A stretch of DNA of 64,000 nucleotides. Source: Eledone cirrhosa (taxonomy: Eukaryota). Of the stretch, positions 5,544 through 60,263 are shown one piece after another (the first letter of the stretch is position 1; each line of letters starts with the position of its first letter). The notes under the pieces were generated by a model that saw only the letters and a program-made list of their open reading frames with translations, was not told where the DNA came from and did no database searches. Position numbers and translations under genes: made by a program. The stretch covers positions 397,420,001 to 397,484,000 of the forward strand of contig OZ024740.1 of assembly GCA_964016885.1 (NCBI GenBank), written 5' to 3'.

Positions 5544-5577
<34 letters not shown>

Positions 5578-8500
5578 GGAATCCTGGAGAGTGGAGGAGA
5601 GAGAGAGAAAAATCTGGACGCTCAGCGACAATGCCAAAGATAAAGACAAATTCACCTCTTGGACGAGAATGCGAGCACTCCTCATTGTTTCGACCGCGGA
5701 CGGCTAACATAACCCCATCGCCCCCCGCCCCCCACCGCCCCCAACCCCCAAACGCAATCCAAAACTTCAGAGTTGGTACCATAAATGTAGGCACCCTAAA
5801 GGGTCGCGCTAACGAGGTTGTAGAAATGCTTGAACGTAAGGAGGTCGATGTTTGTTGTATTCAAGAGACCAGGTGGAGGGGTGGGTCTGCTAGGTTCATT
5901 GAGGGTAAAAAACGATGTTATAAGCTTTTCTGGGTGGGAAACGACGATGGGCTGGGTGGAGTAGGAATCATGGTAGCAGAAAAGTGGGCAGATAAGATAA
6001 TAGACGTAAATAGAGTGAACGACAGAATAATTAAAATACGACTTGTCCTCAATAGAACTACGGTGACAGTAATATCTGCGTACGCACCCCAATCCGGACT
6101 GCCCGGCACTATAAAAGACAGATTCTATGAGACACTGATGCTAACTACCTCCCAAATATCCGACAGTGACTATATAATTATCGCAGGCGACCTAAATGGT
6201 CACGTTGGACAACATTGTGACGGCTACGACGAAATCCATGGAGGCTATGGGTTTGGTACTAGAAATGAGGAAGGCTCCAGAATCCTGGAATTCTGTGATG
6301 CAAATAACCTAACTATCTGTAACACTAACTTCAAAAAACGTGACAATCACCTGATCACCTATAGATCCGGGGAACACACAAGCCAGGTAGATTATATCCT
6401 GACCAGAAGACGTGACAGAGTGTCTGTTGTAAACACTAAATCCCTCCCCCATGAAGAATGCACCTCCCAACATAGACTGATAATTAGCGACCTCATAGTC
6501 AGGATGAGACGTACTCGACAGCAGAAGAGGACTATCCTCAGGAGAAAAATATGGAAGCTAAAGGACCCCACAGCCAGGAATAAATTTCAAAGCATATTAC
6601 TTGATGCTTTCGACAGTAAGGAAGAACATTTAGAGTCGGACAATATAGAGGGAGAGTGGGAATTTCTGAAAGCAAACCTGCTGTTGGCGACAGACGAAGT
6701 CTGTGGCTGGAGCAGGCCTGTAGGCAGGAGGAGAGTAACATGGTGGTGGAACAGTAAGGTGGAGGGGTCAATTAAGGCCAAAAAGCAGGCTTGGAAAGTA
6801 TGGCGGGATGGGGGAAGTAGAGAAGACTATCAAGTGGCCAGGAGGGAAGCTAGGAGACAAGTGTACTTAGCAAGAAGGGAAGCTGAGGAAAGAAAGTTCA
6901 AGCATGTTCTACAACGCGATGACCAAAAACGTGAGGTGTTCAGGATTGCTAGGCAATGCGTCAAGGAAAACCGTGATATTGTCGGGGAGAAGTGTGTACT
7001 AAACGACGATGGCACACTTGCCATCACCGACGCTGATAAGAAGGTAGCTTGGAAGTGTCACTATGAAAGGCTACTAAATGAGGAGAATAAATGGGAGAAA
7101 GACAGTCTCCCCCATATCGACCCAATAGAGGGACCAGCAGTGTTAGTCGAGGGGAGCATAATAAGTAAGGCAATCAAGGATATGAAGACGGGTAAGGCGG
7201 CTGGGCCTTCGGAAATAGTTGCTGAGATGCTGAAGGCATCTGGCACGGTGGGACACACCATGGTCACCCGCATAGTTAACCAAGTCGTACAGAATGGGGT
7301 TGTTCCGAAGGACTGGCATAGCAGCATCATCGTTAACTGTTATAAGGGTAAAGGAGACGCCCTAGATAGGAGTAACTATAGAGGCATTAAATTAATCGAC
7401 CAGGTCATGAAGGTCACGGAAAAAGTAATAGCGCAACTAATCAGAGAGAGAATTGACCTAGATGAAATGCAGTTCGGGTTTGTGTCAGGCAAAAGTACCA
7501 CAGACGCTCTTTTCATTGTACAACAACTACAGGAGAAGTACCTAGCTAAAGGTAAACCCCTCTACTTAGCTTTTGTCGACTTGGAGAAAGCCTTCGACAG
7601 AGTCCCCCGCTCCATTATCTGGTGGGCTCTTAGAAAACTAGGCGTTGACGAATGGCTTGTGAGGGCTATACAAGCCATGTATAAAGAAACAGTCAGCAAG
7701 GTTAGAATTAACAACGAATATAGTGAAGAGTTTAGCGTAAAAGTTGGCGTCCATCAGGGCTCTGTTCTCAGCCCCCTACTATTTATTATTGCCCTTCAGG
7801 CTATAACAGAGGAGTTCAAGACAGGCTGCCCATGGGAACTCCTACATGCAGACGACCTGACACTCATAGCGGAATCAATGGCCGAGCTAGAGAAGAAATT
7901 CCAAACATGGAAGCACGGCCTAGAGTCAAAAGGACTTAAAATTAACCTGGCTAAGACCAAAGTACTAGTTTGTAGGAAAGAAAACAAGGCGGCGGTCCCT
8001 TCTGGGAAATGGTCGTGCTCGGTGTGTAGGAAAGGCGTAGGTAGAAACTCCATTTTATGTCCTAAATGCAAAGTATGGGTGCATAAAAGATGTAGTGGGA
8101 TCACAGGTAAGCTAACTAAGAACATAGATTTTACATGTGGCCGGTGTTCTGGTGCAATATGTAGCAGCAAGTGCCCACAAAATACTAGCTCTTTCAATTG
8201 CGCAGAGGGTTCTATAGAAATAGTGGACAGCTTCCGTTACCTGGGCGATAAAATCAGCAGTGGGGGAGGGTGCTCTGAAAGTACTGTAGCTAGAGTCAGA
8301 ACTGGTTGGAAAAAGTTCAGAGAGCTTATACCACTATTAGCTGCTAAAGGGTTCTCCCTAAAAATGAAAGGCAGGTTGTACGATGCCTGCATACGAACAG
8401 CAATGCTGCATGGCAGTGAGACCTGGGCATTGTGTGCAGAGGATATACGCAGGCTAGAGAGGAACGAAGCTTGCATGCTCCGCTGGATGTGTAACAGTAA

Positions 8501-9199
8501 TATACGTGAACGGCAAAGCATAAACGAACTAAGGAAAAAATTAGAGATAAGAGGGATCAGATGTTGTTTACTCGAGAGAAGGCTACGTTGGTATGGACAC
8601 GTGATGCGCATGAAAGTCGATAGCTGTATAACAAAGTGCAGGGCAATAAAGATAGACGGTAGTCACGGAATAGGCAGACCTAGAAAAACCTGGGACGAGC
8701 TGATAAACTCCGACATCACACACTTACACCTCTCCAAGACAATGTCACTGGACCGAGACCTTTGGCGGTACTCAGTAACAGAGAAGACCCGCCGTACCTA
8801 AATATATAGTAAAACCTACTCCAGCCAGTAGGCATCTCTAACAAAATACACCCCGTCCCACCACCACCACCCCGCCCCATCCACACCACCCCGTTCTATG
8901 TAAAGTTATGTTGGTGCCGCGCCATCGAGGCCGAAACAAATGAGATCGTGTAGGTGTCACGACAAAAAAACACACAGTCCACGCTGTAATGTGGCCGTGT
9001 AGGCAACACGGTAAAACCCTCCCAGACCCACACTGTAAATGTGGTTGGTGTTAGGAAGGGCATACAACTGTAGAAAACCTGCCAGACAGTCCTATGCGAG
9101 CAAGACAATCACTCTTGCCTCAAGTGGGACTACCCCCGTCCAAACCCATGCAAGCGTGGAACACGGACGTTAAACGTTGATGATGATGATGATGATGAT
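5578..9199 (+). mobile_element. full-length RTE-clade LINE (subfamily A)
   Basis: About 53-nt 5' UTR, single APE-RT ORF, about 380-nt 3' UTR, (GAT)n tail; (CA)n(TA)n on both sides. Confidence 0.95.
5631..8801 (+). CDS. RTE ORF, 1056 aa: APE endonuclease + reverse transcriptase + PHD-type zinc finger
   Basis: GTINVGTL, CIQETRW, GDLNGH, QVDYIL, SQHRL (APE); FVDLEKAFD, GVHQGSVLSP, HADD, FRYLG (RT); C4HC3 finger at 8016-8147; RLRWYGHVMR and GRPRKTW (RTE C-terminus). The track start at 5460 lies in microsatellite, so ATG 5631 is the plausible start. Confidence 0.93.
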   Translation: MPKIKTNSPLGRECEHSSLFRPRTANITPSPPAPHRPQPPNAIQNFRVGTINVGTLKGRANEVVEMLERKEVDVCCIQETRWRGGSARFIEGKKRCYKLFWVGNDDGLGGVGIMVAEKWADKIIDVNRVNDRIIKIRLVLNRTTVTVISAYAPQSGLPGTIKDRFYETLMLTTSQISDSDYIIIAGDLNGHVGQHCDGYDEIHGGYGFGTRNEEGSRILEFCDANNLTICNTNFKKRDNHLITYRSGEHTSQVDYILTRRRDRVSVVNTKSLPHEECTSQHRLIISDLIVRMRRTRQQKRTILRRKIWKLKDPTARNKFQSILLDAFDSKEEHLESDNIEGEWEFLKANLLLATDEVCGWSRPVGRRRVTWWWNSKVEGSIKAKKQAWKVWRDGGSREDYQVARREARRQVYLARREAEERKFKHVLQRDDQKREVFRIARQCVKENRDIVGEKCVLNDDGTLAITDADKKVAWKCHYERLLNEENKWEKDSLPHIDPIEGPAVLVEGSIISKAIKDMKTGKAAGPSEIVAEMLKASGTVGHTMVTRIVNQVVQNGVVPKDWHSSIIVNCYKGKGDALDRSNYRGIKLIDQVMKVTEKVIAQLIRERIDLDEMQFGFVSGKSTTDALFIVQQLQEKYLAKGKPLYLAFVDLEKAFDRVPRSIIWWALRKLGVDEWLVRAIQAMYKETVSKVRINNEYSEEFSVKVGVHQGSVLSPLLFIIALQAITEEFKTGCPWELLHADDLTLIAESMAELEKKFQTWKHGLESKGLKINLAKTKVLVCRKENKAAVPSGKWSCSVCRKGVGRNSILCPKCKVWVHKRCSGITGKLTKNIDFTCGRCSGAICSSKCPQNTSSFNCAEGSIEIVDSFRYLGDKISSGGGCSESTVARVRTGWKKFRELIPLLAAKGFSLKMKGRLYDACIRTAMLHGSETWALCAEDIRRLERNEACMLRWMCNSNIRERQSINELRKKLEIRGIRCCLLERRLRWYGHVMRMKVDSCITKCRAIKIDGSHGIGRPRKTWDELINSDITHLHLSKTMSLDRDLWRYSVTEKTRRT

Positions 9200-9240
<41 letters not shown>

Positions 9241-9254
9241 TATATATATATATA

Positions 9255-10439
9255 TTCCGGGAAGTGGCCATGCTCAGTGTGTAGGAAAGGCGTAGGTAGA
9301 AACTCCATTTTGTGTCCCAAATGCAAAGTATGGGTGCATAAAAGATGTAGTGGGATCACAGGTAAGCTAACTAAGAACATAGATTTTACATGTGGCCGGT
9401 GCTCTGGTGCAATAAGTAGCAGCAAGTGCCCACAAAATACTAGCTCTTTCAACTGCGCAGAGGGTTCTATAGAAATAGTGGACAGCTTCCGTTACCTGGG
9501 TGACAAAATCAGCAGTGGGGGAGGGTGCTCTGAAAGTACAGTAGCTAGAGTCAGAACTGGATGGAAAAAGTTCAGAGAGCTTATACCACTATTAGCCGCT
9601 GAAGGGTTCTCCCTAAAAATGAAAGGCAGGTTGTATGATGCCTGCATACGAACAGCAATGTTGCATGGCAGTGAGACCTGGGCATTGTGTGTAGAGGATA
9701 TACGCAGACTAGAGAGGAACGAAGCTTGCATGCTCCGCTGGATGTGTAATAGTAATATACGTGAAGGGCAAAGCATAAACGAACTAAGGAAAAAATTAGA
9801 AATAAGAGGGATCAGATGTTGTTTACTTGAGAGAAGGCTACGTTGGTATGGACACGTGATGCGCATGAAAGTCGATAGCTGTATAACAAAGTGCAGGGCA
9901 ATAAAGATAGACGGTAGCCACGGAGTAGGCAGACCCAGAAAAACCTGGGACGAGCTGTTAAATTCCGACCTCACACACTTACACCTCTCCAAGACAATGT
10001 CACTGGACCGAGACCTTTGGCGGTACTCAGTAATAGAGAAGACCCACCTTACCTAAATACAAAGTAAAACCTACTACAGTCAGTAGGCATCTCTAACAAA
10101 ATACACCCCGTCCCACCACCCCCACCCCATCCACACCGCCCCTTTCAATGTAAAGTTATGTTGGTGCCACAACATCCAGGCCGAAACAAATGAGGTCGTG
10201 TAGGTGTCACGACAAAAAACACACAGTCCACGCTGTAATGTGGCCGTGTAGGCAACACGATAAAAACCTCCCACTGTAAATGTGGTTGGTGTTAGGAAGG
10301 GCATCCAGCTGTAGAAAACCCGCCAGACAGTCCTATGCGAGCAAGACAATCACTCTTGCCTCAAGTGGGAAAACCCCCATCCAAACCCATGCAAGGGTGG
10401 AACACGGACGTTAAACATTGATGATGATGATGATGATGA
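9255..10439 (+). mobile_element. 5'-truncated RTE-A copy
   Basis: ORF 9277-10056 near-identical to the C-terminus of the full-length copy; same 3' UTR and (GAT)n tail. Confidence 0.95.
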
Positions 10440-10474
10440 CACATATATATATATATCTATATATATATATACAC

Positions 10475-10531
<57 letters not shown>

Positions 10532-10533
<2 letters not shown>

Positions 10534-12445
10534 CGGAATGGGATCGTACCGAAGGACTGGCGCAGCAGCATCATCATTAACTGCTACAAGGGTAAAGGTG
10601 ATGCCCTAGATAGGGGAAACTATAGAGGCATTAAATTAATTGACCAGGTCATGAAGGTCACAGAAAAAGTAATAGCGCAACTAATCAGAGAGCGAATTGA
10701 TCTAGACGAAATGCAGTTCGGGTTTGTGTCAGGTAAAAGTACAACAGACGCTCTTTTCATTGTACAACAACTACAGGAGAAGTACCTAGCTAAAAGTAAA
10801 CCCCTATACTTAGTTTTTGTTGACTTGGAGAAAGCCTTTGACAGAGTACCCCGCTCGATTATCTGGTGGGCCCTTAGAAAACTAGGTGTTGATGAATGGC
10901 TTGTGAGAGCTATACAAGCCATGTATAAGGAAACAGTCAGCAAGGTTAGAATTAACAACGAATATAGTGAAGAGTTTAGCGTAAAAGTTGGTGTTCATCA
11001 GGGCTCCGTCCTTAGCCCCCTACTATTTATTATTGCCCTTCAGGCTATAACAGAGGAGTTCAAGACCGGCTGCCCATGGGAACTCCTATATGCAGATGAT
11101 CTAACGCTCATAGCTGAATCAATGGCTGAACTAGAGAAGAAATTCCAAACATGGAAGCATGGCCTAGAATCAAAAGGCCTCAAAATTAACTTGTCTAAGA
11201 CTAAAGTTCTAGTTTGTAGGAAGGAAAATAGGGCACCGGTCCCATCTGAGAAATGGCCATGCTCAGTGTGTAGGAAAGGAGTAGGTAGAAACTCCATTTT
11301 ATGTCCCAAATGCAAAGTATGGGTACATAAAAGATGTAGTGGGATCACAGGTAAACTATCTAAGAACATAGATTTTATATGTGGCCGGTGCTCTGGTGCA
11401 ATAAGTAGCAGCAAGTGCCCACAAAATACTAACTCATTCCATTGCACAGATGGTTCTATAGAAATAGTGGACAGCTTCCGTTACCTGGATGATAAAATCA
11501 GCAGTGGGGGAGGGTGCTCTGAAAGTACAGTAGCTAGGGTCAGAACGGGATGGAAAAAGTTCAGAGATCTTATACCACTATTGGCCGCTAAAGGGTTCTC
11601 TCTAAAAATGAAAGGCAGGTTGTATGATGCCTGCATACGAACAGCAATGTTACATGGCAGTGAGACCTGGGCATTGTGTGCAGAGGATATACACAGACTG
11701 GAGACAAACGAAGCTTGCATGCTCCGCTGGATGTGTAATAGTAATATACGTGAACGGCAAAGCATAAACGTACTAAGGGAGAAATTAGAAATAAGAGGGA
11801 TCAGATGTTGTTTACTCGAGAGAAGACTACGTTGGTATGGTCACGTGATGCGCATGAAAGTCGATAGCTGTATAAAAAAGTGCAGGGCAATAAAAATAGA
11901 CGGTAGCCACGGAGTAGGCAGACCCAGAAAAACCTGGGATGACTTGATAAATTCCGACCTCACACACTTACACCTCTCCAAGACAATGTCACTGGACCGA
12001 GACCTTTGGCGCTACACAGTAATAGAGAAGACCCGCCTTGCCTAAGTACAAAGTGAAACCTACTACAGTCAGTAGGCACCTCTAACAAAATACACCCCAT
12101 CCCACTACCCCCACCCCATTCACACCACCCCTTTCAATGTAAAGTTATGTTGGTGTCACAACATCCAGCCCAAAACAAATGAGGTCGTGTAGGTGTCACG
12201 ACAAAAAAAAAAAAACACAGTCCACGCTGTAATGTGGCCGTGTAGGTAACACGGTAAAAACCTCCCAGTTCCACACTGTAAATGTGGTTGGTGTTAGGAA
12301 GAGCATCCAGCCGTAGAAAACCCGCCAGACAGTCCTATGCGAGCAAGACAACCACTCTCGCCTCAAGTGGGAAAACCCCCCATCCAAACCCATGCAAGCG
12401 TGGAATATGGACGTTAAACGATGATGATGATGATGATGATGATGA
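10532..12445 (+). mobile_element. 5'-truncated RTE-A copy (RT with YADD, PHD, 3' UTR)
   Basis: ORF 10651-12045; WELLYADDL; (GAT)n tail followed by ACACATATATA. Confidence 0.95.
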
Positions 12446-13622
12446 CACATATATATATATACATATATATATTATGTTCTATATTCAAACATATTTAGGG
12501 TCATATAAGAAAATACACCTCCTGAAAATTGGTGCTGCAAAAGTTATGAATTCGAATTTGTAAAGAGCATCAAACATGTCATTTTGAAAAATGGAATGAA
12601 TGATATCGACACTGCTTCTTATGAAAGATTAATACATTTTACTAATGCTGCTAGTAAAATGTTGATTTTTATATATCATATTTTTTCTTGTTTGCTGAAA
12701 TTATACAGCCATCAGCATGATAGTAAGTCAATTTTGACAGTAACTGAACAATTCTATCTTCATAACTAATTGGATCTGTACAATAATATAGTATTTGCCT
12801 TAGATTGTAAGAGAGCCAGGGTGAGAAAACAGAAATATTGCAGCATGACTGAAGAGAGAAATTATACTATTTACAGAACGACAATGTTTAGATATGAGCT
12901 AACAAGGGTATTTCTACATCTTGCTCAACCTGCTAGAAACAGAAGCCAAATCGCCCTTTGATTTGTCTTCTAAAAAGAAGACACTTTGGATAATGAAGTT
13001 TGAGTCAGCTTGATCAGAGTTGACTTGGAACTAAACAACAACCTTGTGAGGATCATCAGAAAGATCTAACCATCGCTAATAAATGGGAATATATGTATAT
13101 GATAAAAGATTAATTTACATAATATATATAACACTCAGCAAGTCATCTGTAAGGAAATATTATTTTGAGAAATTGGCTTGAATTTTGGAATATTATATAG
13201 CCTCAAGCAGATCATAGGACAGTGTGAAGTGGTTGAAATCTTTTGTAGAGAAAAGATTAATTAAAAACCATGAATTGTTAGTCAAGTATTTATCAAAGAA
13301 AGTTTATGTAACTACTTTTCAGTTTGCTGAGGCTAAAATATGAAACATCACAGTGTTTGAAACACCTACTTCGACCTCAAAATAAAAACATTCATTACTA
13401 ATATTTGCAATATTTGAACTGAAGGACAGTGAATGAATTTGTAGAAGTGGAGTGGATCAATTAGCAGAATAGTTAATGTCAAATAAAATGTTTGCAGTAT
13501 TTAGTTACAGCCGTTTATACTCTGAATTCAAATCCTGTCACGGCTGACTTTGTTTTTCATCTTTATGTTGCCAATACACTGAAATTTTAATTAAGCACTG
13601 GAGTTGGTTAAGTTGATTATAC

Positions 13623-25584: not shown

Positions 25585-26048
25585 GTTTAACGTCCATGTT
25601 CCATGCTTGCATGGGTTTGGACGGGAGTTTTCCCACTTGAGGCAAGAGTGGTTGTCTTACTCGCATAGGACTGTCTGGCGGGTTTTCTACAGCTGGATGC
25701 CCTTCCTAACACCAACCACATTTACAGTGTGGGGCTGGGAGGTTTTTACCGTGTTGCCTACACGGCCACATTACAGCATGGACTGTCTGGCGGGTTTTCT
25801 ACAGCTTGATGCCCTTCCTAACACCAACCACATTTACAGTGTGGGACTGGGAGGTTTTTATCGTGTTGCCTACACGGCCACATTACAGCGTGGACTGTGT
25901 GTTTTTTGTCGTGACACCCACACGATCTCATTTGTTTCGGCCTGGATGTTATGGCACCAACATAACTTTACATTGAAAGGGGCGGTGTGGATGGGGGGGG
26001 CGGGTATTTTGTTAGAGATGCCTACTGACTGTAGTAGGTTTTACTTTG
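25551..26048 (-). mobile_element. RTE-A 3' UTR-only copy with tandem-duplicated core, inserted in an (ATT)n run
   Basis: (GAT)n tail at 25551-25584; (ATT)n on both sides (25530-25550, 26049-26071); about 113-bp internal duplication. Confidence 0.9.
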
Positions 26049-30259: not shown

Positions 30260-30260
30260 C

Positions 30261-30312
<52 letters not shown>

Positions 30313-30337
30313 ATATAGGTATATATATATGTATATA

Positions 30338-30382
<45 letters not shown>
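30260..30382. repeat. (TA)n microsatellite, left edge of RTE nest 2
   Basis: Direct reading. Confidence 0.95.
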
Positions 30383-30386
<4 letters not shown>

Positions 30387-31146
30387 TCATCATCATCATC
30401 ATCACCGTTTTACGTCCGTTCTTCCACGCTAGCATGGGTTAGACGGGTTGTCCTGTTGTGGGCAGTGTCTGGTCGGCTGACCATGCCTTGCTCATACAGG
30501 AACTGATCTGGCTTGATTTCTACAGCTGGATGCCCTTCCTAACACCAACCTCATTTACAGTGAGTGCTGGGTGCTTTTTCGTGGCGCCTACACGTCCACT
30601 TTACAGTGTGGGCTGGGTGCTTTTTTGCCGTGGCACCTCCACGACCACCTTGCGGTGGGGGGGGGGGGGGGGCATATTGTTTATATGCTTCAGCATGTAC
30701 CCATGGGAGGTCGGGTACCCTGTATTACTGCGTGACGCCAGAAGTCACGGTCGTGTGTCATTGACTTTGAGAGGTGTAGTTGGGTAAGGTCGGCTTTTAT
30801 CACCTCATCCCAAGTCATCTTGGGTCTCCCCACTCCGCGGTTTCCATCAACTTCTAGTGCTCTGCACCTTTTTATGCAGCTGTCATCCTTCATACGCATC
30901 ACATGTCCATACCAGCGTAACCGCCTCTCCTGCACGCAGCATTTGATTCCTCTTATGCTCAGTCTCTCTCTCAATTCATTTATGCTTTGTCGTTCACGTA
31001 TATTACTGTTACACATCCATCGGAGCATGCAGGCTTCGTTTCTCTCTAATCTACGTAAGTCTTCCACCTTCAGCGCCCAGGTCTCACTACCATGCAACAT
31101 CGCTGTTCGGATACACGCATCATACAGTCTGCCTTTCATTCTGAGG

Positions 31147-31149
<3 letters not shown>
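30383..31149 (-). mobile_element. RTE subfamily B 3' fragment
   Basis: ORF 30690-31331(-) RTE C-terminus; distinct 3' UTR; (GAT)n tail. Confidence 0.93.
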
Positions 31150-31223
<74 letters not shown>

Positions 31224-31227
31224 TATA

Positions 31228-31947
31228 TTGGTACGGTCACGTGATGCGCATGAAAGACGACAGCTGTATAACAAAGTGCAGGGCAATAAAGATAGACGGT
31301 AGCCACGGAGTAGGCAGACCCAGAAAAACATGGGACGAGCTGATAAATTCCGACCTCACACGCTTACACCTCTCCAAGACAATGTCACTGGACCGAGACC
31401 TTTGGCGGTACTCAGTAATAGAGAAGACCCGCCTTACCTAAATACAAAGTAAAAACCTACTACAGTCAGTAGGCATCTCTATCAAAACACACCCCCGTCC
31501 CACCACCTCCACCCCATCCACACCGCCCCTTTCAATGTAAAGTTATGTTGGTCCCACAACATCCAGGCCGAAACAAATGAGATCGTGTAGGTGTCACGAC
31601 AAAAAACACACAGTCCACGTTGTAAATGTGGCCGTGTAGGCAACACGGTAAAAACCTCCCAGCCCCACACTGTAAATGTGGTTGGTGTTAGGAAGGGCAT
31701 CCAGCTGTAGAAAACCCGCCAGACAGTCCACGCTGTAATGTGGCCGTGTAGGCAACACGGTAAAAACCTCCCAGCCCCACACTGTAAATGTGGTTGGTGT
31801 TAGGAAGGGCATCCAACTGTAGAAAACCCGCCAGACAGTCCTATGCGAGCAAGACAACCACTCTTGCCTCAAGTGGGAAAACCCCCGTCCAAACCCATGC
31901 AAGCGTGGAACACGGACGCTAAACCTGATGATGATGATGATGATGAT
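31228..31947 (+). mobile_element. RTE-A 3' fragment with duplicated 3' UTR core
   Basis: ORF 31241-31441; tandem duplication about 31611-31836. Confidence 0.93.
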
Positions 31948-31950
31948 ACA

Positions 31951-32012
<62 letters not shown>

Positions 32013-32042
32013 TATATTGGTACGGTCACGTGATGCGCATGA

Positions 32043-33192
32043 GAAAGACTAAGGTCCTTGTAAGTAGACGAGAAAACAGAACCCAGATCCCCTCAGGGAA
32101 ATGGCCTTGCTCAGTATGTAGGAAAGGTGTAGGTAGGAACTCCATTCTCTGCCCCAAATGCAAACAATCGGTACACAAGAGATGTAGCGGGATCTCAGGA
32201 AGCTTAATTAAGAATGTAGGATTCACATGCAGCAGCTGTGCTGAAACAGCAAGCAAACAGCCACAGGAAACAAGTACCACCAATCTCTGGGAGGGCCCTG
32301 TAGAAACAGTAGACAGCTTCTGCTACCTAGGTGACCGAATTAGCAACGGAGGTGGGTGCTCAGAAAGTACAATAACTAGGGTAAGAACGGGATGGAAGAA
32401 GTTTAGGGAACTACTACCACTGCTAGCTGCAAAAGGATTCTCCCTCAGAATGAAAGGCAGACTGTATGATGCGTGTATCCGAACAGCGATGTTGCATGGT
32501 AGTGAGACCTGGGCGCTGAAGGTGGAAGACTTACGTAGATTAGAGAGAAACGAAGCCTGCATGCTCCGATGGATGTGTAACAGTAATATACGTGAACAAC
32601 AAAGCATAAAGGAATTGAGAGAGAGACTGAGCATAAGAGGAATCAAATGCTGCGTGCAGGAGAGGCGGTTACGCTGGTATGGACATGTGATGCGTATGAA
32701 GGATGACAGCTGCATAAAAAGGTGCAGAGCACTAGAAGTTGATGGAAACCGCGGAGTGGGGAGACCCAAGATGACTTGGGATGAGGTGATAAAAGCCGAC
32801 CTTACCCAACTACACCTCTCAAAGACAATGACACACGACCGTGACTTCTGGTGTCACGCAGTAATACAGGGTACCCGACCTCCCATGGGTACATGCTGAA
32901 GCATATAAACAATATGCCCCCACTCCCCCCACCGCAAGGTGGTCGTGGAGGTGCCACGGCAAAAAAGCACCCAGCCCACACTGTAAAGTGGACGTGTAAG
33001 CGCCACGAAAAAGCACCCAGCACTCACTGTAAATGAGGTTGGTGTTAGGAAGGGCATCCAGCTGTAGAAGTCAAGCCAGATCAGTTCTTGTATGAGCAAG
33101 GCATGGTCAGCCGACCAGACACTGCCCACAACAGGACAACCCGTCTAACCCATGCTAGCGTGGAAGAACGGACGTAAAACGGTGATGATGAT
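32043..33192 (+). mobile_element. RTE-B 3' fragment (PHD to tail)
   Basis: ORF 31928-32899; near-identical to 30383-31149 in inverted orientation. Confidence 0.93.
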
Positions 33193-33231
33193 ATATATAT
33201 ATATACAGTATATATATATATATATATACAG

Positions 33232-33637
33232 TCATCATCATCATCATCATCATCATGTTTAGCGTCCGTGTTCCACGCTTGCATGGGTTTGGACGGGGGT
33301 TTTCCCACTTGAGGCAAGAGTGGTTGCCTTGCTCGCATAGGACTGTCTGGCGGGTTTTCTACAGTTGGATGCCCTTCCTAACACCAACCACATTTACAGT
33401 GGGGCTGGGAGGTTTTTACCATGTTGCCTACACGGCCACATTACAGCGTGGACTGTCTGGCGGGTTTTCTACAGCTGGATGCCCTTCCTAACACCAACCA
33501 CATTTACAGTGTGGGGCTGGGAGGTTTTTACCGTGTTGCCTACACGGCCACATTTACAGCGTGGACTGTGTGTTTTTTGTCGTGACACCTACACGATCTC
33601 ATTTGTTTCGGCCTGGATGTTGTGGGACCAACATAAC
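33232..33637 (-). mobile_element. RTE-A 3' UTR fragment with duplicated core
   Basis: Shares diagnostic variants (GGTCCCAC, TGTAAATGTGGCC, GGACGCTAAA) with 31228-31947. Confidence 0.92.
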
Positions 33638-33682
33638 AGTATATATATATATATACATATATATGTATAAATATATATATAT

Positions 33683-35355
33683 AGGTGATTAGGGAAATGA
33701 AAAATGGTAAGGCGGCCGGACCATCGGGAATAGTTGCTGAGATGCTGAAGGCATCAGGGGACGTAGGCACTAAACTGGTTGCACGCATCATCAATCAGGC
33801 TATATATGGTGGTGTCATACCCAAAGACTGGTGCAGCAGTATTCTCATAAATTGCTACAAAGGTAAAGGGGATGCTTTGGAGAGGAGCAATTATTGGGGT
33901 ATAAAACTGATAGATCAGGTTATGAAAGTGGCAGAAAGGATTTTAGCACAACTAATTAGAGAAAGGGTCAAACTAGATGAGATGCAGTTTGGTTTTGTGC
34001 CTGGGAAGAGTACAACAGATGCCCTCTTCTTGGTGAGACAAATGCAAGAGAGGTTCTTAGAGAAGAATAAGCCACTATACTTAGCCTTTGTTGACCTAGA
34101 GAGGGCCTTTGATAGGGTACCCCGATCTGTCATCTGGTGGTCCCTAAGGAAGCTAGGTGTTGAGGAATGGCTTGTGAGGACAGTGCAAACTTTGTACAGA
34201 GGTACTCTCAGTAAAGTCAGGGTAGGAATGGAGTTTAGTGAGGAATTCCAGATAAAAGTAGGAGTACATCAGGGTTCGGTCCTCAACCCGCTCTTGTTCA
34301 TTATAGTCCTCCAAGCCATAACAGAGGAGTTTAAGACTGGCTGTCCATGGGAACTTCTCTATGCTGACGATCTGGTTCTTATAGCAGAATCAGTAGAGGA
34401 GCTAGAGAATAAATTCTGGCTATGGAAACAGCAGTTGGAAGCAAGAGGACTGAGAGTGAATCTAGCTAAGACAAAAGTGTTGATGAGTAGAAAAGAGGAC
34501 AAAACCCTGATTCCGTCAGGGAAATGGCCATGTTCGATATGCAGAAAAGGAACTGGTATAAATTCTATAAAATGCACACAATGCAGATCCTGGGTACACA
34601 AGAGATGTAGCGGGATAGCAGGCAAACTAACAGGTAGGGAGAAATATGTATGCAGTAGATGTACAGGGAAATTAGACAGTAGAAGTCGCACTGATAGACA
34701 CATTTTTCAAATGCAAGAGGGCGCTATAGAAGTGGTGGATAGCTTCCGGTACCTAGAAGATCAGATTAGCATGGGAGGAGGGTGTTCCGAGAGCATAGTA
34801 TCTAGAATAAGGACGGGTTGGAAGAAGTTTAGGCCGCTGCTTCCTCTGTTGACGAAGAAGGGTTTCTCCCTGCGTACGAAAGGCCGGTTGTATGATGCCT
34901 GTGTGAGGAGCTCGATGCTGCATGGTAGCGAGACATGGGCAGCAACTGCAGAGGATATGCGACGGCTGGAGAGAAATGAGGCAAGCATGCTCCGTTGGAT
35001 GTGCAGTGTAAATGTATGCAGCATAAATGTGTTGAGAGAGAAACTGTGTCTGAGAGGGATAGAATGTAGTGTACGAGAGAGGAGACTGAGGTGGTATGGA
35101 CATGTGATGCACATGGAGGATGACCGATGGGTGAAGAAGTGCCAGGAAATGCCAGTTGAAGGAAGACGTGGGAGAGGTAGACCACGAAAAACATGGGTGG
35201 AGGTGGTGAGAACAGACCTCAGATCATTGAAGCTCACGGTGGAGATGACGAGGGACCGTGACGAGTGGAGAGATGCTGTGCTGAATAAGACCCGTCCCAC
35301 CCTTGCAAGCAGGGAAAAGCGGACGTAAAATTATGATGATGATGATGATGATGAT
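33683..35355 (+). mobile_element. RTE subfamily C, 5'-truncated; open RT-PHD ORF 33685-35328; essentially no 3' UTR
   Basis: FVDLERAFD, GVHQGS, YADD, C4HC3; the ORF stop lies a few nt before the (GAT)n tail. Confidence 0.95.
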
Positions 35356-36072
35356 ATAGTAATATACGCGAACGGCAAAGCATAAATGAACTAAGTGAGA
35401 AATTAGGAATAAGAGGGATCAGATGCTGTTTACTTGAGAGAAGACTACATTGGTATGGTCAAGTGATGCGCATGAAAGACGACAGTTGTATAAAAAAAGT
35501 GCAGGGCATCAAAATTGATGGAAGTTACGGAGTAGGCAGGCCCAGAAAAACCTGGGACGATTTGATAAATTCCGACCTTACACATTTACACCTCTCTAAG
35601 ACAATGTCACTGGACCAAGATCTTTGGCGCTACGCAGCAATACAGAAGACTCACCTTGCCTATGTACAAAGCAAAACCTACAGTCAGTAGGCACCTCTTA
35701 ACCAAATATACACCCATCCCATTACTCCTACTCCACCACCCCCACTCCCGCCAACACCACCCTTTCTCTGTAAAGTTATGTTGATACCACAACATCCAGT
35801 CCTAAATAAATGAGGTTGTGTAGGTGTCACGACAAAAAAACACACAGTCCATGCTGTAATGTGGCCATGTAGGTAACACGGTAAAAACCTCCCAGTCCAC
35901 ACTGTAAACGTGGTTGGTGTTAGGAAGGGCATCCAGCCGTAGAAAACCTGCCAGACAGTCCTATATGAGCAGACATGGTCACCCGACCAATCTTGCCTCA
36001 AGTGGGACAATTCCCGTCTAAACCCATGCTAGCGTGGAAGATAGACATTAAAAGATGATGATGATGATGATG
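35356..36072 (+). mobile_element. RTE subfamily D 3' fragment abutting the tail of the C copy
   Basis: ORF 35463-35690 RTE C-terminus with frameshift; 3' UTR and (GAT)n. Confidence 0.9.
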
Positions 36073-36723
36073 AAGATATATAATATATATATATATACAC
36101 ATACATATAATGAATAAAAATTTTTGGGGAAGACAAGAAAATGAATGAATACAGACAGTCCTATCTCATCAGTCAACTGCTAGAGATACATTGTTTCAGT
36201 GCTCTAAGAGTAATACAACTAGCTGTAATTCACAAGGGGCAGTAACAAATGGACAAAGGACAAAACAATAGTCTTAACGACTATATACAAATAAGAGAAA
36301 ACTTGCCACTAACCCACGAGCTGCAACTGAAAAGATATTGGTGCGGCCCAACAAGAGGAAGAAGTAGAAGAGAAGGTGAGAGAGATAAAAAATATACAAA
36401 TGTTAATAAAAGTATTTTCTGTTTGGACATTAAGTCCTAAAAAGACAGGCATAACAAGCAGAGGAAAAGAGAGAGTAAGTGAAGAAAGACAGACAAATGC
36501 AGAGGCATAAGATAAATGTATATATATATATATATATATATTATGATAAAACACAAGTGTCATATAAAAACCACTTTGTGCTAGGTTTCTTTGATAATTT
36601 GATATCTTCCTCCTAACCCCCTTCTATCTCTTACAACCTTTGACAATGTAGTCAGTAGTCAAATGGGAAGCTGTCTATAGCTACCTACCTATTTATCTGT
36701 CTATCTATCAATCTATCTATCGC

Positions 36724-51535: not shown

Positions 51536-51738
51536 CAGAAACATATATACATTTCTGTGTGTGTGTAATATATATATATATACACACACAGAAATATATA
51601 TATATACACACAGAAATATATATACATTTCTGTGTGTGTAATATATATATATATACACACAGAAATATATATACATTTCTGTGTGTGTAATATATATATA
51701 TATACACACAGAAATATATATACATTTCTGTGTGTGTA

Positions 51739-51769
<31 letters not shown>

Positions 51770-51960
51770 GAAATATATATACATTTCTGTGTGTGTAATA
51801 TATATATATATATATACACACAGAAATATATATATATTTCCGTGTGTGTATATATATATATATTACACACACAGAAATGTATATATATTTCTGTGTGTAT
51901 ATATATATATATTACACACACAGAAATGTATATATATATACACACAGAAATATATATACA
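51536..51960. repeat. about 42-bp hairpin minisatellite, block 1, partly inverted
   Basis: Unit CACACAGAAATATATATACATTTCTGTGTGTGTAA(TA)n; orientation flips near 51830-51940. Confidence 0.9.
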
Positions 51961-52511: not shown

Positions 52512-52758
52512 AGAAATATATATACATTTCTGTGCGTGTAATATATATATATATACACACACAGAAATATATATACATTTCTGTGTGTGTAATATATATA
52601 TATACACACAGAAATATATATACATTTCTGTGTGTGTAATATATATATATATACACACACAGAAATATATATATATACACACAGAAATATATATACATTT
52701 CTGTGTGTGTAATATATATATATAAACACACAGAAATATATATACATTTCTGTGTGTG

Positions 52759-52799
<41 letters not shown>

Positions 52800-52882
52800 G
52801 AAATATATATACATTTCTGTGTGTGTAATATATATATATATATATATACACACACAGAAATATATATACATTTCTGTGTGGG

Positions 52883-52921
<39 letters not shown>

Positions 52922-52930
52922 GAAATATAT
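52512..52930. repeat. about 42-bp hairpin minisatellite, block 2
   Basis: Same unit as block 1. Confidence 0.9.
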
Positions 52931-52939
52931 GGGCATTTC

Positions 52940-52973
<34 letters not shown>

Positions 52974-54791: not shown

Positions 54792-57700
54792 CTACAGGCT
54801 GATATAGAGAGAAGGCCCATTCACTCGGGCCATTCTCGCCACTTTCACCCACCTTTCATAAAACTTGCTGGGGTACAGCACCTCTCTCTCCATCCTGATT
54901 CTTCTTCTAAAGTGGTATTTGAAAAAAAGAATCAGTTGTTGGCCAGAGATAAAGGTGTCTGACCTCAGCCCTTTTAACCTCGTCCACCATACAACCTCTT
55001 TCGCCATAGCTATCACACAAAGGAAAACCGCCTCTCCTTCGTTTTTGAAGGAGGGTGGTGGTTTGATCATGACAATGGACTCGGTGGTCAACCGGATTGG
55101 TCCCCACTCGCGACAATAGTCGTTCTACATAGCCACACAGGTCGGTAACGCCCGGGCAATGTACGAATGCGTGCGCGACGGTTTCTTCGTCTCGCACGCA
55201 TCTCGGACAGATCTTTTTTGAAGGGTCCCTGCCCGGACCCCGTGTCTGTAGAGCTTGTCTCGAACTGGTAGAGCTCCTCGGTAGCACTGACAGGACAAGG
55301 ATTTTTGGAAGTTGTCCATCGGTCCCGGGCGGAAAGTCCATTCGAACAGACTGGCCAGTTCGTCTTCCTCTGCGCCTAGAGTTTCTCCGAGCGCGTCGTC
55401 GCACTTGTTGCGGACCAACCCTCTATAGAATGACGAAGTGGAGTCTCCACTGATCGCCGGGTCCGCCTGCCAGAGGGCTGTGAGCGCCTGTGCCAGTCGC
55501 CCATTTTCCTCGGTCTTTGCTTGACCCAGGACTGCAGCTCGGTCAGCGAGACGAGTCGTGGGAAGGCTCGCCTCACGAACGGGGCCCACACCGGTTGTCC
55601 GGTGAGGAATACGTGGAGGTGCCGTAGCCTTAGCGCGTGTTTGCGCATCCCCATCCCTCCGTTGGAAGGGTGTTGGCAGCAGATGGATCTTCTCACCAAA
55701 GAAGCCTGCTTCTTGCAAAGGAGTTGGAAGAGGACGCGCTTCATTTTGGTGAGCGTTTTGGCTGGACAAGGCACGACGGTCAAGCGGTAGTAGATGACGG
55801 ACGCTATAAAAGTGTTCGCCACCTCCGCTCGACCTTTCAAGGATAGTTTGCACTCGGCCCACTTCTGGGTGAGTGCAAACACCTTGGCCGTCACCTCGTT
55901 CCTGTTCTTCTCCACCTGGAGGTCCGGACCAAACCAGACCCCGAGCAGCTTCACCGGTCTTTCTTTCCAGCGTCCGACGATCCAAGTTGCAAACCGATAT
56001 ACATGTCTCGGTTCAGCTTCGCTCCTGTGAACCATTCGTATTCCTTCAGTAAGGTGCCGACTTCCTCGATTTGCGAGGTGCTCGACACCATTACTGTCAC
56101 GTGGTCGGCGTAGGCCGACGCCGCTTTTCGCAGTCCCGGTTCCAGAGGAATGCCCTGCAATAGCTCCAACTTCAGTACGTACGTACAGAAGTGAAGAGAG
56201 AGCTCCAGTACGTACAGAAGGGAAGAGAGAGGGCTTCCCTCTCGGATGGATCGCGTGATATGGAACGGCTCCAAGAGGTAACCGTTCACCTTGACCCTTG
56301 AGCAGATGTTGCTGCTGTGCATTGCAGCAATCCAGCCCCTGAACACGGGTCCGAATTCTGCCGCCTCGAGCACCGCATCCAGGTAACAATGGTCAACCCT
56401 ATCGAAAGCCTTAGACTGATCCAAGTTGATAAGGGCCCCACCGAAGCCGGGTTTACACCCTACCTTCTCTACGATGTATCGCATGAGGTGGAGGTTGTCG
56501 TGTATGGACCTGGTCGGGATTGCGCATGTCTGCGCTTTTCCCACCAGGTTTTCGACGACAAGCACCAGCCTCTTTGCCAACACCTTGGCCAAAATCTGTA
56601 ACTCTGTGTTTAGCAGAGTTATGGGCCGGAAATTGCTTATGTCATCCCTCTTATTCTCGTCCTTCATGACTAGCATGACTATGCCCTTGGTCACAGAATT
56701 GGTAATTCTCCCATTCGGCTGCCAGTTGCAGTTGACCGCTTCCAGGAGAACAGAGAACAAGTCCGGCATTGCTACATAAAATTCGTAGGGTAGACCGTCG
56801 AGACCTGGAGATTTGCGATTGCCGAATTGGCTCAGCGCGTCTCCTATCTCAGCAGCTGAAATCGGCCTTTCGCAGAACTTCGCCTCGCTGTCCGAGAGTC
56901 GCGGCAGACCGTCGAGGTATGGACCGAAATCCATAGCCCCTCCTGGCACGCCGCCCTGCCTGAACAGTTGACCAAAGTGCCGCTGAAAGGCCGTGCACAT
57001 CTGCTTCGGCTCACATATCACGCGTCCGTTTTGGTCCTTCAAAGACCGAATCGTGGACTTGTTGCCACTTTTCGCCTCCGTCACTCGGGCCCAGCTAAAA
57101 GCTTTGGCTCCCTCGTTAACCAGAGCACGTATTTTGCTTCTGACAATGCAGCCTTCATGCTTTGCGTCGAAGAACTGGTTCAAGGCCGTTCTCATCGCCA
57201 GCACGCTGGCTACGTTGCCACTTCTAATTGCCTCTTCTACTTTATCTACCAGTTCCTTCTCGGTCCTATTTCTATCAAACGCTAATTCTTTACTAAAAAC
57301 TAACGATTATAATCTAACTGCCCTCTTGAGAGAGTACCACCATCTGTTATTGACAATGGCCCCTGTCAAGTGCTGTTTAACTAAAGTGGTAATCCATCTA
57401 CTGTAGGCTTTGCATGTCGGTAATGACAAGTTCAGCTTCCAGTAGCCGGGTCCTTATCTATGGGTTCTATCAAGGTTTACTTTGCAGGTCACTAGTTTGT
57501 GATCTGAATAGGTAACCATGAACATTTGTGGACAGCTTAACATGTCCCTATCCTTATTTCTAACTAGAACCCTATCTAGGTACGCTCTAGATGTTCCACT
57601 GAAATTAGTCCACGTCCACAGTGGCACAGTCGGAAAATCTAGTCGATATCTATCGGCCAGGTCAAATCGGCCGATTAACTGTTTGAGGCTGTTACACCCC

Positions 57701-58178
57701 CCTTTATCGGGACATGCTACCACATAGTCCCACCGTGCATCTAGGATTCCATTCCAGTCCCCCACTAAAAGCAAGGAGCGGGACGTTCCCAGAAAAGTCT
57801 CTAGACGTTTGAAGAAGTCTGGCCGTGGAGTCCCGGATGGGGCATATGCGGCCACCAGCCTGAAGGCTCCACCTTCACTACCGTCAACGTCTAGGACCAC
57901 CAGTCGACCCTCCGGGTCCAGATGTACCGTCTGTGTTACGAGGCCCAGGTGTTTCCTCAGCAAAACGGCAACCCCGCGTCACCTCCCGGCTGACATAGAA
58001 ATGCGTAGATCTCATAGTCATCGAAGATGGGAACCAGCTGTCGCTTGCTGTGGATCCTGGACTCGCAGATGGCAATTACATCCATACTGTGCGACCTGAG
58101 ATCGTTTAAGAGTTTGCCCTGTTTCCAGGGCATCCCCAGGCCGTGCACATTCACACAACCGACTCTTACATTCGCCAT
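54792..58178 (-). pseudogene. Tx1 ORF2 (APE-RT-zfRVT), broken into several frames
   Basis: VGCVNVHGL, GDWN, YLDRVL, SDHK; KSPGLDG, NFRPITLLN, LDQSKAFDRV, AYADHV; CPRC..ETVAHAFVHC. Confidence 0.9.
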
Positions 58179-58189
58179 GTCGGTAAGGA

Positions 58190-59763
58190 AGAGTTGGAAA
58201 AGAAAAGGAAAAGTTAACTCACCTTTTCGTTTCCTGGAGAGCGAGTCGCTCAAGTTCCATGGCGGTGTTGGAGGGGTTGTCTGGGTAGGTGGTGGTTTCC
58301 GGCGGGGTGGGGACGGGGATGTTTGGTGGGGAGGGGTTTCTGGTGGGATGGGTGTGTCTGGGGTGGCGGTGTCTGTGGTGGGGAGACATTTGAGAAGGAC
58401 GCGGTTAAGTGGTTTCACGCAGGAATTCCCCACATCCTTTTCAAATGTTTCTTTTAGGGACCTATAAGTTTGTATAGGGACCCTAATCAGTTTTAGGTTC
58501 GGTTTTTTATTATTTTTATTAGAGTTTGCGAAAGTTTTCCCTTCGGTTTTCACCAAAGGGTTGTTCGTGATGGTCTCCATTAGTGTTTTGTTTTCAGTGT
58601 TTATGTGTAAGTGTTTGTATTTGTCTGTAGTTCTTGTGTGTGCTTTCGTTTTGTTGTAGGTATTTTGTTTTCAGGAAGGTGGGGGTTTTGTTTGTGATGT
58701 TTTTGTTGTTTGTGTTGGTGGTTGTATGTTTGTGGTAGTGTTTGCTGGTTTTTTGTTTTTGTGGTGCCTTTTTTTTCTTTTCGAGCGATGGGGTTCTTCC
58801 TCGTCTTCACTGGGTGATGGCGAGATAGCCTCATCTGTTGTATCGTCTGTGTGATTGGGGAGGGGTATGTCTTGGGGAGCTGTTGTATCTGTATGTCATT
58901 TTGCAGTGGTTTTAGGTGGAGTGTGGTTGGGTGTTTGTTGTGGTTATTTTTGTGTGTTGGTGTTGTTGTTGTGGTGGTGGTGGTGGTGGTTGTGTTATTT
59001 TGATGGGTGTCGGCAGAAGATTCTTTTTTTGACTCATTAATTGAGGACAGGAAGCCCTCAGGTTACCCTGATAAAGCAGTAGTAACATGAAGGCCGCCTA
59101 CCCTCAACCGAAAAGTTTATGTAGGTGAGTCCATCCAGGAGTACACGTTGTGGGATCCTATCTATTCGTTCTGGGCTCATTTGCACCAGAACTTCAATGT
59201 TAGTCCCATTAAATATATCTCTGGGGAACTTTCCTACTGACAGTATTCTGTCTTCATCAAAATTGATGAAGCCGCACAGTATCAACGATATGTTTACCTT
59301 TGGTGTGACACTTGTGATTCTGGTCTTTTGTGTCCTTTTTCCCATGTATGTGGAGGAAAAGGTATACAGGTTGGATACAATTGGTGACACAGAGTAATTT
59401 TGGGCCGTCAATTGATCCTTCATGAGTACCGAAATACTCCCAAAGTGTATTTGAATGAATGAAATATCATTCATTGAATTTTTGAAAACCAGTTCAATTT
59501 CTTTCTGTGATAATTGGACCGGTTTTCGGGTAGAATTGGAAACTATCCTAAAAACTATCGTTTTGAGGGCAGTTTCCTTACGAATTTCTACAGGGGAATT
59601 GATGCTGAAAGCACCATTCTTTTCAAAAGTAACATATCTCCTAGCGTCCTTTAGAAGTTGTTCGGCATTTGATATGTCGAGATATGTTAATTCCTCCTTT
59701 TTCAGAACTGTGCAAAGGAATTTTTGGTTTCTTTGTGGAATTGTCCGTGTTGGTGGTGTTGTC
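58190..59763 (-). pseudogene. Tx1 ORF1 (gag-like, zinc knuckle, Thr/Pro-rich tail)
   Basis: VEGRRPSCYYC followed, after a frameshift, by RASCP; low-complexity T/P/K tail. Confidence 0.7.
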
Positions 59764-60263
59764 TTTTAATGTAATATAATTCCCTAATCAGGTAATGTGT
59801 TGTGTCTTCGAACAAGAGACTACAATTTTCCCCCAGTTCACTCAGCTAAATATGAGTACCAGTGGCAGCTGGGAGTTAGTCATGTGATGGATACCATCTT
59901 GTCTAGAGTGAAGTTTTGTATGCTCATTCATTTAACATCTATGAAACCGGGATAAGCTATGGGCTTTGTCCTACCTGTGCAAACATGGAATAATGGATGA
60001 AGTCAATAACTAACACACTCTGTCATATATACATATATGTATATATATTTAAATATAAGTATGTATACATACATACATATATGTATACAGACGTACAGTA
60101 GTATGTATATATACATACATGCACACATATATATATATGTACGTATGGGTTTACTGAACATTTATTATAATGTTCGGTTTGTATGTAAACAAACAGCCCG
60201 AATTATTAGCCGTACAGTATTCGGCAACCATCGTTGCCATTTTGTTCAACACTGACAAAGGAG

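Follow-up and report, generated by a model that had tools for sequence, protein, structure and literature searches.

A nest of RTE-like LINEs in an interrupted (TA)n array of Eledone cirrhosa, and the bias of its elements for TA runs

Among the described retrotransposons, the RTEs that insert at Tn-TA sites, i.e. Bov-B, plant RTEs and their short interspersed nuclear elements (SINEs), come closest to a group of long interspersed nuclear elements (LINEs) of Eledone cirrhosa, six RTE-like pieces of which lie between 30.3 and 36.1 kb of a 64,000-nucleotide stretch of its genome (contig OZ024740.1, positions 397,420,001 to 397,484,000; the whole stretch is here called the window). The Tn-TA RTEs (PMC6007223, PMC13295347) resemble these LINEs in having a single open reading frame (ORF) with APE endonuclease and reverse transcriptase (RT) domains, a TA-type cut site, a microsatellite tail that matches the first bases of the target, short target-site duplications (TSDs) and a weak target preference. 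The LINEs of E. cirrhosa differ from these RTEs in that 38-45% of the counted copies lie immediately at TA runs, most overlaps at unique sites are below 8 nt as compared to 7-15, the 3' untranslated regions (UTRs) of two subfamilies comprise ~370-480 nt, and a PHD finger follows the RT.

Non-LTR elements are found within simple repeats also in the case of the APE LINEs Waldo, Mino, Kibi and Koshi, and of Dong, but in the review PMC3812793 these are described as sequence-specific, none of those listed targets TA, and the word 'RTE' is absent. Elements of the Waldo, Kibi, Koshi or Dong type would have nearly all copies in the target repeat; here, 38% and 45% of the copies in two subfamilies stand before ATATATA, and 25 of 106 loci have no TA run of 8 nt on either side. 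A strong (TA)n bias with TSDs that are hard to read is reported for Naiad Penelope-like elements (PMC8557442), which use a GIY-YIG endonuclease instead of APE, and for the miniature inverted-repeat transposable element Micron (PMC3812793) and MuTAnT (PMC4486113), which depend on a transposase and are no APE LINEs. RTE 3' fragments are likewise linked to microsatellites in lepidopteran families, but there the repeat is the own tail of the element between TSDs (PMC2887409), whereas the TA of E. cirrhosa is not part of the (GAT)n tail and has marks specific to the locus on either side. Finally, the extra nucleotides at ZfL2 5' ends, described as copied from flanking DNA (PMC4245944), are like the putative templated filler of 25 nt found in the nest, although the template would here be the junction of a neighbouring LINE, 789 bp upstream. 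Open-access full text yielded no description of RTE nests with a (TA)n bias, and subscription papers or repeat databases may hold one; the accessible portions of PMC13282606, PMC9115989, PMC2887409 and PMC10294476 contain no description of the target site.

The nest and its CAG marks

It appears moderately probable that the nest arose by six independent RTE-like insertions into one interrupted (TA)n array, with nicking at short AT/ATAT motifs, short TSDs, and an array that multiplies its interruptions by itself. The elements would nick such short motifs, with which their (GAT)n tail would pair, and the insertion would leave only short target duplications. TA arrays would be the densest source of the preferred motif, and as target remains on both sides of an insertion, the same array could be struck repeatedly, while the multiplication of the interruptions would be brought about by the array through slippage or templated repair. 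The arrangement is as follows, pieces being named A to F:

30261..30384, no strand: left TA array with GTG/GG/G interruptions, CAG absent
30382..31148, - strand: piece A, 5'-truncated LINE of the A/C subfamily with (GAT)n tail
31149..31228, no strand: TA spacer A|B, CAG at 31190 and 31221
31229..31947, + strand: piece B, 5'-truncated LINE of the B/D subfamily, 112-bp repeat in the 3' UTR
31948..32017, no strand: TA spacer B|C, CAG at 31949 and 32010
32018..32042, + strand: exact copy of the first 25 nt of B, ahead of C
32044..33192, + strand: piece C, 5'-truncated LINE of the A/C subfamily
33193..33232, no strand: TA spacer C|D, CAG at 33206 and 33229
33233..33637, - strand: piece D, 3' UTR fragment of the B/D subfamily
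33637..33683, no strand: TA spacer D|E, opening with CAG at 33637
33685..35355, + strand: piece E, RT and PHD half of a third subfamily, ORF terminating at the tail
35356..36077, + strand: piece F, the most diverged piece, nearest copy examined 87.8% identical
36076..36109, no strand: right TA tract, CAG absent, followed by an older repeat family
5561..12470, + strand: second nest, a near-full-length B-type element and two truncated copies, head-to-tail

The six pieces thus represent four subfamilies. TA tracts border the nest on the left of A and on the right of F and separate its pieces at A|B, B|C, C|D and D|E, which agrees with an earlier note on this DNA that had described TA spacers at all junctions but one. 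The exception is E|F, where the tail of E directly meets the ATAG of F itself. That note had overlooked that the B|C spacer is not TA alone but holds 25 nt of B. The left array adjoins the end of a different repeat family, and TA follows at all other loci of this family that were shown. Identities between the pieces are 98.5% for A and C, 98.7% for B and D, 83-84% for B and F, and 67% for C and E, and the nearest copies elsewhere are 100% (A), 99.4% (B), 99.0% (D), 98.9% (C), 97.7% (E) and 87.8% (F) identical. A and B are closer to copies elsewhere than to C and D, and the pieces are therefore separate insertions; a local inverted duplication from C to A and from B to D is ruled out by the same identities. 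F and E, with the lowest nearest-copy identities, are the oldest, whereas the order of B and C is not settled by this measure. A second haplotype or empty allele was not detected with the right flank, which has one 100% match (itself), paralogues of 70-97% identity, and near-full-length ones of at most 83%.

The seven CAG marks at 31190, 31221, 31949, 32010, 33206, 33229 and 33637, which the earlier note had regarded as a barcode, all share the + strand, with 0 occurrences of the reverse forms TATACTGT and TATACTGTATA within the window. The C of the mark at 33637 could be part of the end of D. CAG is indeed a rare interruption (2 of 724 interruptions in 400 kb of an evenly spaced sample, and 9 of 409 interrupted arrays in all DNA examined, a count that includes the spacers of the nest itself), and it is absent from the outer tracts left of A and right of F. 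B is flanked on both sides by the identical 11 nt ATACAGTATAT, the AT of the tail included, and this is a probable TSD that contains CAG and would have contributed one new mark. Another one was probably contributed by D, whose flanks point to a TSD of 4-5 nt (CAGT/ACAGT) with microhomology.

A third mark, the one at 32010, belongs to a different kind of duplication. Positions 31193-31253 are repeated exactly at 31982-32042, and these 61 nt, which carry 25 nt of the 5' end of B, occur exactly twice in the genome, both times in the nest. At the end of the copy, the B and C families have CATGA and AAAGAC in common, which suggests that the cDNA end of C annealed to B when the 5' end of C was joined, was extended backwards into the TA, and then went back to the target; a template switch at a later time is possible as well. 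As 25 nt of B stand behind B, no TSD can account for this copy. The remaining four marks were probably already there or made by slippage. It is thus likely that most of the CAG copies stem from the instability of the TA repeat and from copying nearby, and not from long target duplications, although, as TA runs change their length, the nest alone could still accommodate a long TSD.

Target preference and target-site duplications

Copies were counted in the genome by exact sequence patterns. The 3'-end motifs have 18,172, 12,586 and 16,569 occurrences, the last number including a ~340 bp derivative. When copies with a fixed tail length are taken, ATATATA comes directly after the tail in 38% of C-type copies (846 of 2,224) and in 45% of B-type copies (1,821 of 4,073), as compared to 1.7% of random positions. 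The same heptamer is found, however, at 15.5% of positions after AT, 27.8% after ATA and 40.9% after ATAT, which means that the enrichment is 22-26 fold over random but less than 3 fold over any AT, and that a preference for a motif of 3-4 nt could yield all of it. The 3' tails are intact, and the flank begins in register with AT/ATA. A TA run of at least 8 nt follows the tail in 18, 20 and 13 of 30 loci each among the first 90 loci of contig 1. In the 106 loci with both ends resolved, TA runs of 8 nt are found 5' at 64, 3' at 61, and on neither side at 25. Four of 60 C-type loci were left out (three unaligned, one with an unreadable flank), and unresolved 5' ends led to the omission of three of 30 B-type and seven of 30 C-type loci. 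All 30 E-type loci, many of which are the short derivative, were excluded from the two-flank tests; four loci with doubtful 5' ends were kept.

The TA association is not significantly dependent on age (23 of 29 young versus 16 of 27 older copies, p=0.15). TA runs constitute ~5% of the sampled DNA, and 55-62% of the counted copies have no ATATATA after the tail. TA targeting is a bias and not a specificity, and of the earlier claim that these RTEs target (TA)n, the genome-wide enrichment has stood and the specificity has not. LINE nests across TA spacers are frequent, in line with that note: 16 of 112 C-type flanks reach another family member through a TA spacer within 200 nt (one adjacent pair is counted twice, and tail-sharing SINE-like pieces are included), whereas among 161 random arrays, 10 have a neighbour of this kind at all. 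In the second nest of the window, the spacers share an ACAC mark in the same manner as CAG is shared in the first.

Other elements are found in the same tracts. An unrelated hairpin-forming repeat (loci L111-L140), which may be Penelope-like, judging from its tandem and inverted layout, has 17,545 exact motif copies, is flanked by (TA)n, and has TA upstream at 28 of 30 loci. As several unrelated repeat families use these tracts, they act as common landing pads. With thousands of copies, the example demonstrates how a weak AT-motif preference of an RTE-like LINE becomes a strong (TA)n bias in a TA-rich genome.

Where they can be measured, the duplications are short. Exact overlaps, generously measured, are 1-8 nt at the 25 non-TA sites, and at eight sites that show their empty state, duplications are 2-15 nt. 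Three of these eight are insertions at the ATAT/ATAACAT spot of the unit of a 43-bp satellite, with 2-7 nt duplicated, two are insertions in a 26-bp satellite, with 15 and 2 nt, and three further ones have 4, 6 and ~2-5 nt. The 43-bp satellite, at L092 1-8100, took up insertions of both the B and the C type at one position within its unit, and two of these insertions were later duplicated along with the satellite. A repeat beside two insertions was considered as a further source of empty sites and dismissed, as it is itself a TA-flanked element. The overlap has a median of 5.5 nt across all 106 loci. It reaches at least 20 nt at 15 loci and at least 30 nt at seven, the latter all within TA that is pure or periodic and in which overlap is to be expected; at L056, a possible longer but imperfect case has 19 nt in common. 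The Rte-1 element of C. elegans reportedly has long flanking direct repeats. At the non-TA and visible-empty sites, where 15 nt is the maximum, no direct repeats that measure tens to hundreds of bases were found. RTE TSDs have been described to peak at 10-12 bp (PMC6007223, PMC4245944), and this is not matched by the 1-8 nt and the single cases of 11 and 15 nt observed here, but the peak is a typical value and no strict criterion.

How the interruptions may have multiplied

The commonest interruption of the 5' flank is also found in the 3' flank at 32 of 40 loci (shuffled mean 4.9, maximum 13 in 5,000 shuffles), and the sharing of interruptions by both flanks that the earlier note had expected is thus real. 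It is, however, equally explained by insertion into an array that already repeated its mark, and marks common to both sides of a transposon do not, alone, prove a long TSD. The median number of interruptions per flank is 8 on one side and 8.5 on the other, far beyond what one insertion supplies, so that the idea of one barcode per insertion is not supported. The mark is repeated within a single flank at 38 of the 40 loci, the top mark is also found reverse-complemented in 11, and 3' flanks are reiterated as much as 5' flanks. Arrays with no called LINE neighbour, which are 165 of 176 sampled arrays, repeat their interruptions as well: the fraction of identical pairs is 0.154 (0.053 expected), one island is present 29 times, and 15 of 29 such arrays longer than 200 nt are homogeneous. 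As arrays without a LINE also repeat marks, a host process, such as slippage between TA runs, probably suffices. In human cells, TA repeats are fragile and break repair favours short templated duplications (PMC13645644).

Several observations weigh against short-motif nicking in a self-multiplying array. In the evenly spaced sample, where older and derivative copies are included and 5 of the 31 tailed ends come from one satellite, a TA run of at least 8 nt follows only 7 of the 31 (background 5.3%). TSD length is unmeasurable inside TA, and one young locus, within a periodic array, has an exact overlap of 73 nt. Arrays that flank LINEs exceed others in length (median 97 nt per flank) and in uniformity, with an identical-pair fraction of 0.52 (n=76) versus 0.14 (n=50) in others (p=8e-11), a gap that persists in purity-matched arrays (p=3e-5) but, after matching for length, reaches significance in the 60-100 nt bin alone (p=0.0002, as compared to 0.08-0.11 in the three remaining bins); the 'non-adjacent' class is contaminated in this comparison, at least one such array having had very short LINE-family ends.

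The latter differences are what growth in connection with insertion would predict, in which 5'-end joining or nick repair repeatedly copies target or junction DNA and thereby lengthens the array without any long TSD. We consider this unlikely. It can refer to the 61-nt copy with its 25 nt of B ahead of C, to the two to four repeats of the first 10-15 nt of the element that lie upstream of its 5' junction at L005, L037, L087 and L220 (in two of these cases without a TA tract), and to tail-like TGA islands in four downstream flanks versus one upstream flank. But of 106 loci, just 5 have 5'-end repeats (shuffling gives a mean of 1.6 and a maximum of 8), TA was gained at none of the eight visible-empty sites, the 3' flanks are reiterated like the 5' flanks, and long arrays receive more insertions merely through their length. 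The missing gain, together with the 165 arrays that have no called neighbour, is also at odds with the seeding of TA tracts that the earlier note had proposed. Locus-specific interruptions could reveal whether insertion grows microsatellites, and if it does, each insertion would enlarge the landing pad for the element itself and for other TA-seeking elements. A wider form of this, namely that a PHD-bearing RTE lineage homes to (TA)n and lengthens it, that templated synthesis repeats marks and neighbouring LINE junctions and so enlarges the landing pad of its own and other elements, and that this helps to keep ~5% of the genome TA, is rather unlikely, too.

The mechanism put forward in the earlier note, specific (TA)n targeting with the tract copied as a long TSD in one round per insertion, can draw on the TA enrichment after tails, the shared marks, the 15 loci with overlaps of at least 20 nt, and the fact that slippage after insertion could blur long TSDs. 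It is nevertheless quite improbable, as duplications are all at most 15 nt at the non-TA and visible-empty sites, marks greatly exceed insertions in number, the 5' end of B downstream of B is impossible by a TSD, and RTE TSDs have the short peak mentioned above. The evidence says that the landing pad is real and genome-wide, but that it was not built by serial long TSDs. Improbable is also that long (TA)n tracts form cruciforms and break, LINE cDNA and other elements being patched in and small duplications being made by end-joining. The TA fragility and the short templated duplications of human cells are in line with such a capture, as are TSDs that are often near zero, the use of the tracts by unrelated repeat families, and the reverse-complemented top marks, but insertions into a satellite that lacks long TA use this ATAT-type site too, and intact 3' tails in register with AT/ATA are predicted by primed reverse transcription at an endonuclease nick. 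The order A to F rests on the assembly, as the four sequence runs compared are short contigs, none of which spans the nest, and the DNA is TA-rich and repeat-dense. That the nest or the B-to-C junction is an artefact of assembly is still highly improbable in view of the closeness of A and B to copies elsewhere, of comparable nests that are common elsewhere, and of a junction that falls on a microhomology of the B and C families.

The element and its neighbours

A near-full-length B-type copy has a frame of 1,056 amino acids (ORF 5631-8801) with APE (Exo_endo_phos), RT (RVT_1) and PHD domains, and C- and E-type copies have ORFs of 1,039 and 1,021 amino acids. The PHD finger is located after the RT (residues 796-839 of the 5631-8801 ORF) in all three subfamilies tested (5631-8801, 33685-35328, 32045-32899). 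As its C4HC3 pattern is present in 120 of the 120 homologues listed, the PHD finger characterizes a wide lineage, and it might read chromatin; one literature search found no paper on this feature. A separate ORF1 was not found: upstream of the main ORF, there is only an ATG frame of 73 amino acids in a C-type copy, and no upstream ATG frame of at least 80 amino acids in six of seven long copies, while two frames of 149-150 amino acids far upstream of one E-type copy are probably in flanking DNA. Every subfamily has a (GAT)n tail. The single APE and RT frame, the absent ORF1 and the tail fit the RTE plan (PMC1291365), an assignment made by domain layout, the homologues listed carrying no family names for a placement in a tree. 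The RTE clade is described as having an unusually short 3' UTR in the same paper; here the 3' UTR is nearly absent in E, ~370-480 nt in B and ~280 nt in C. The family motifs are absent from the eight supplementary files of PMC9115989 that were searched; an identity with RTE-2_OV is possible. A 112-bp tandem duplication in the 3' UTR (31610-31841, 33340-33554, 25663-25898) marks a sub-lineage of the B family.

The ~340 bp derivative mentioned above (L061-L089, e.g. L067 and L075) has an E-type 3' end and AAATG/GAT tails, and is probably a SINE mobilized by these LINEs. Elsewhere in the window, a 49-bp TA-based minisatellite with an inverted repeat inside its unit is found at 51568-51958 and 52512-52948. 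Fragments of a different, longer LINE, presumably L1/Tx1-like, with an upstream ORF, APE and RT frames lie at 54907-59765 on the - strand, and related fragments at 39.8-40.4 kb and 42.9-43.3 kb. The window sits on a contig of 443 Mb in a genome of 3.0 Gb, the four largest contigs being 379-443 Mb and the next one 135 Mb.

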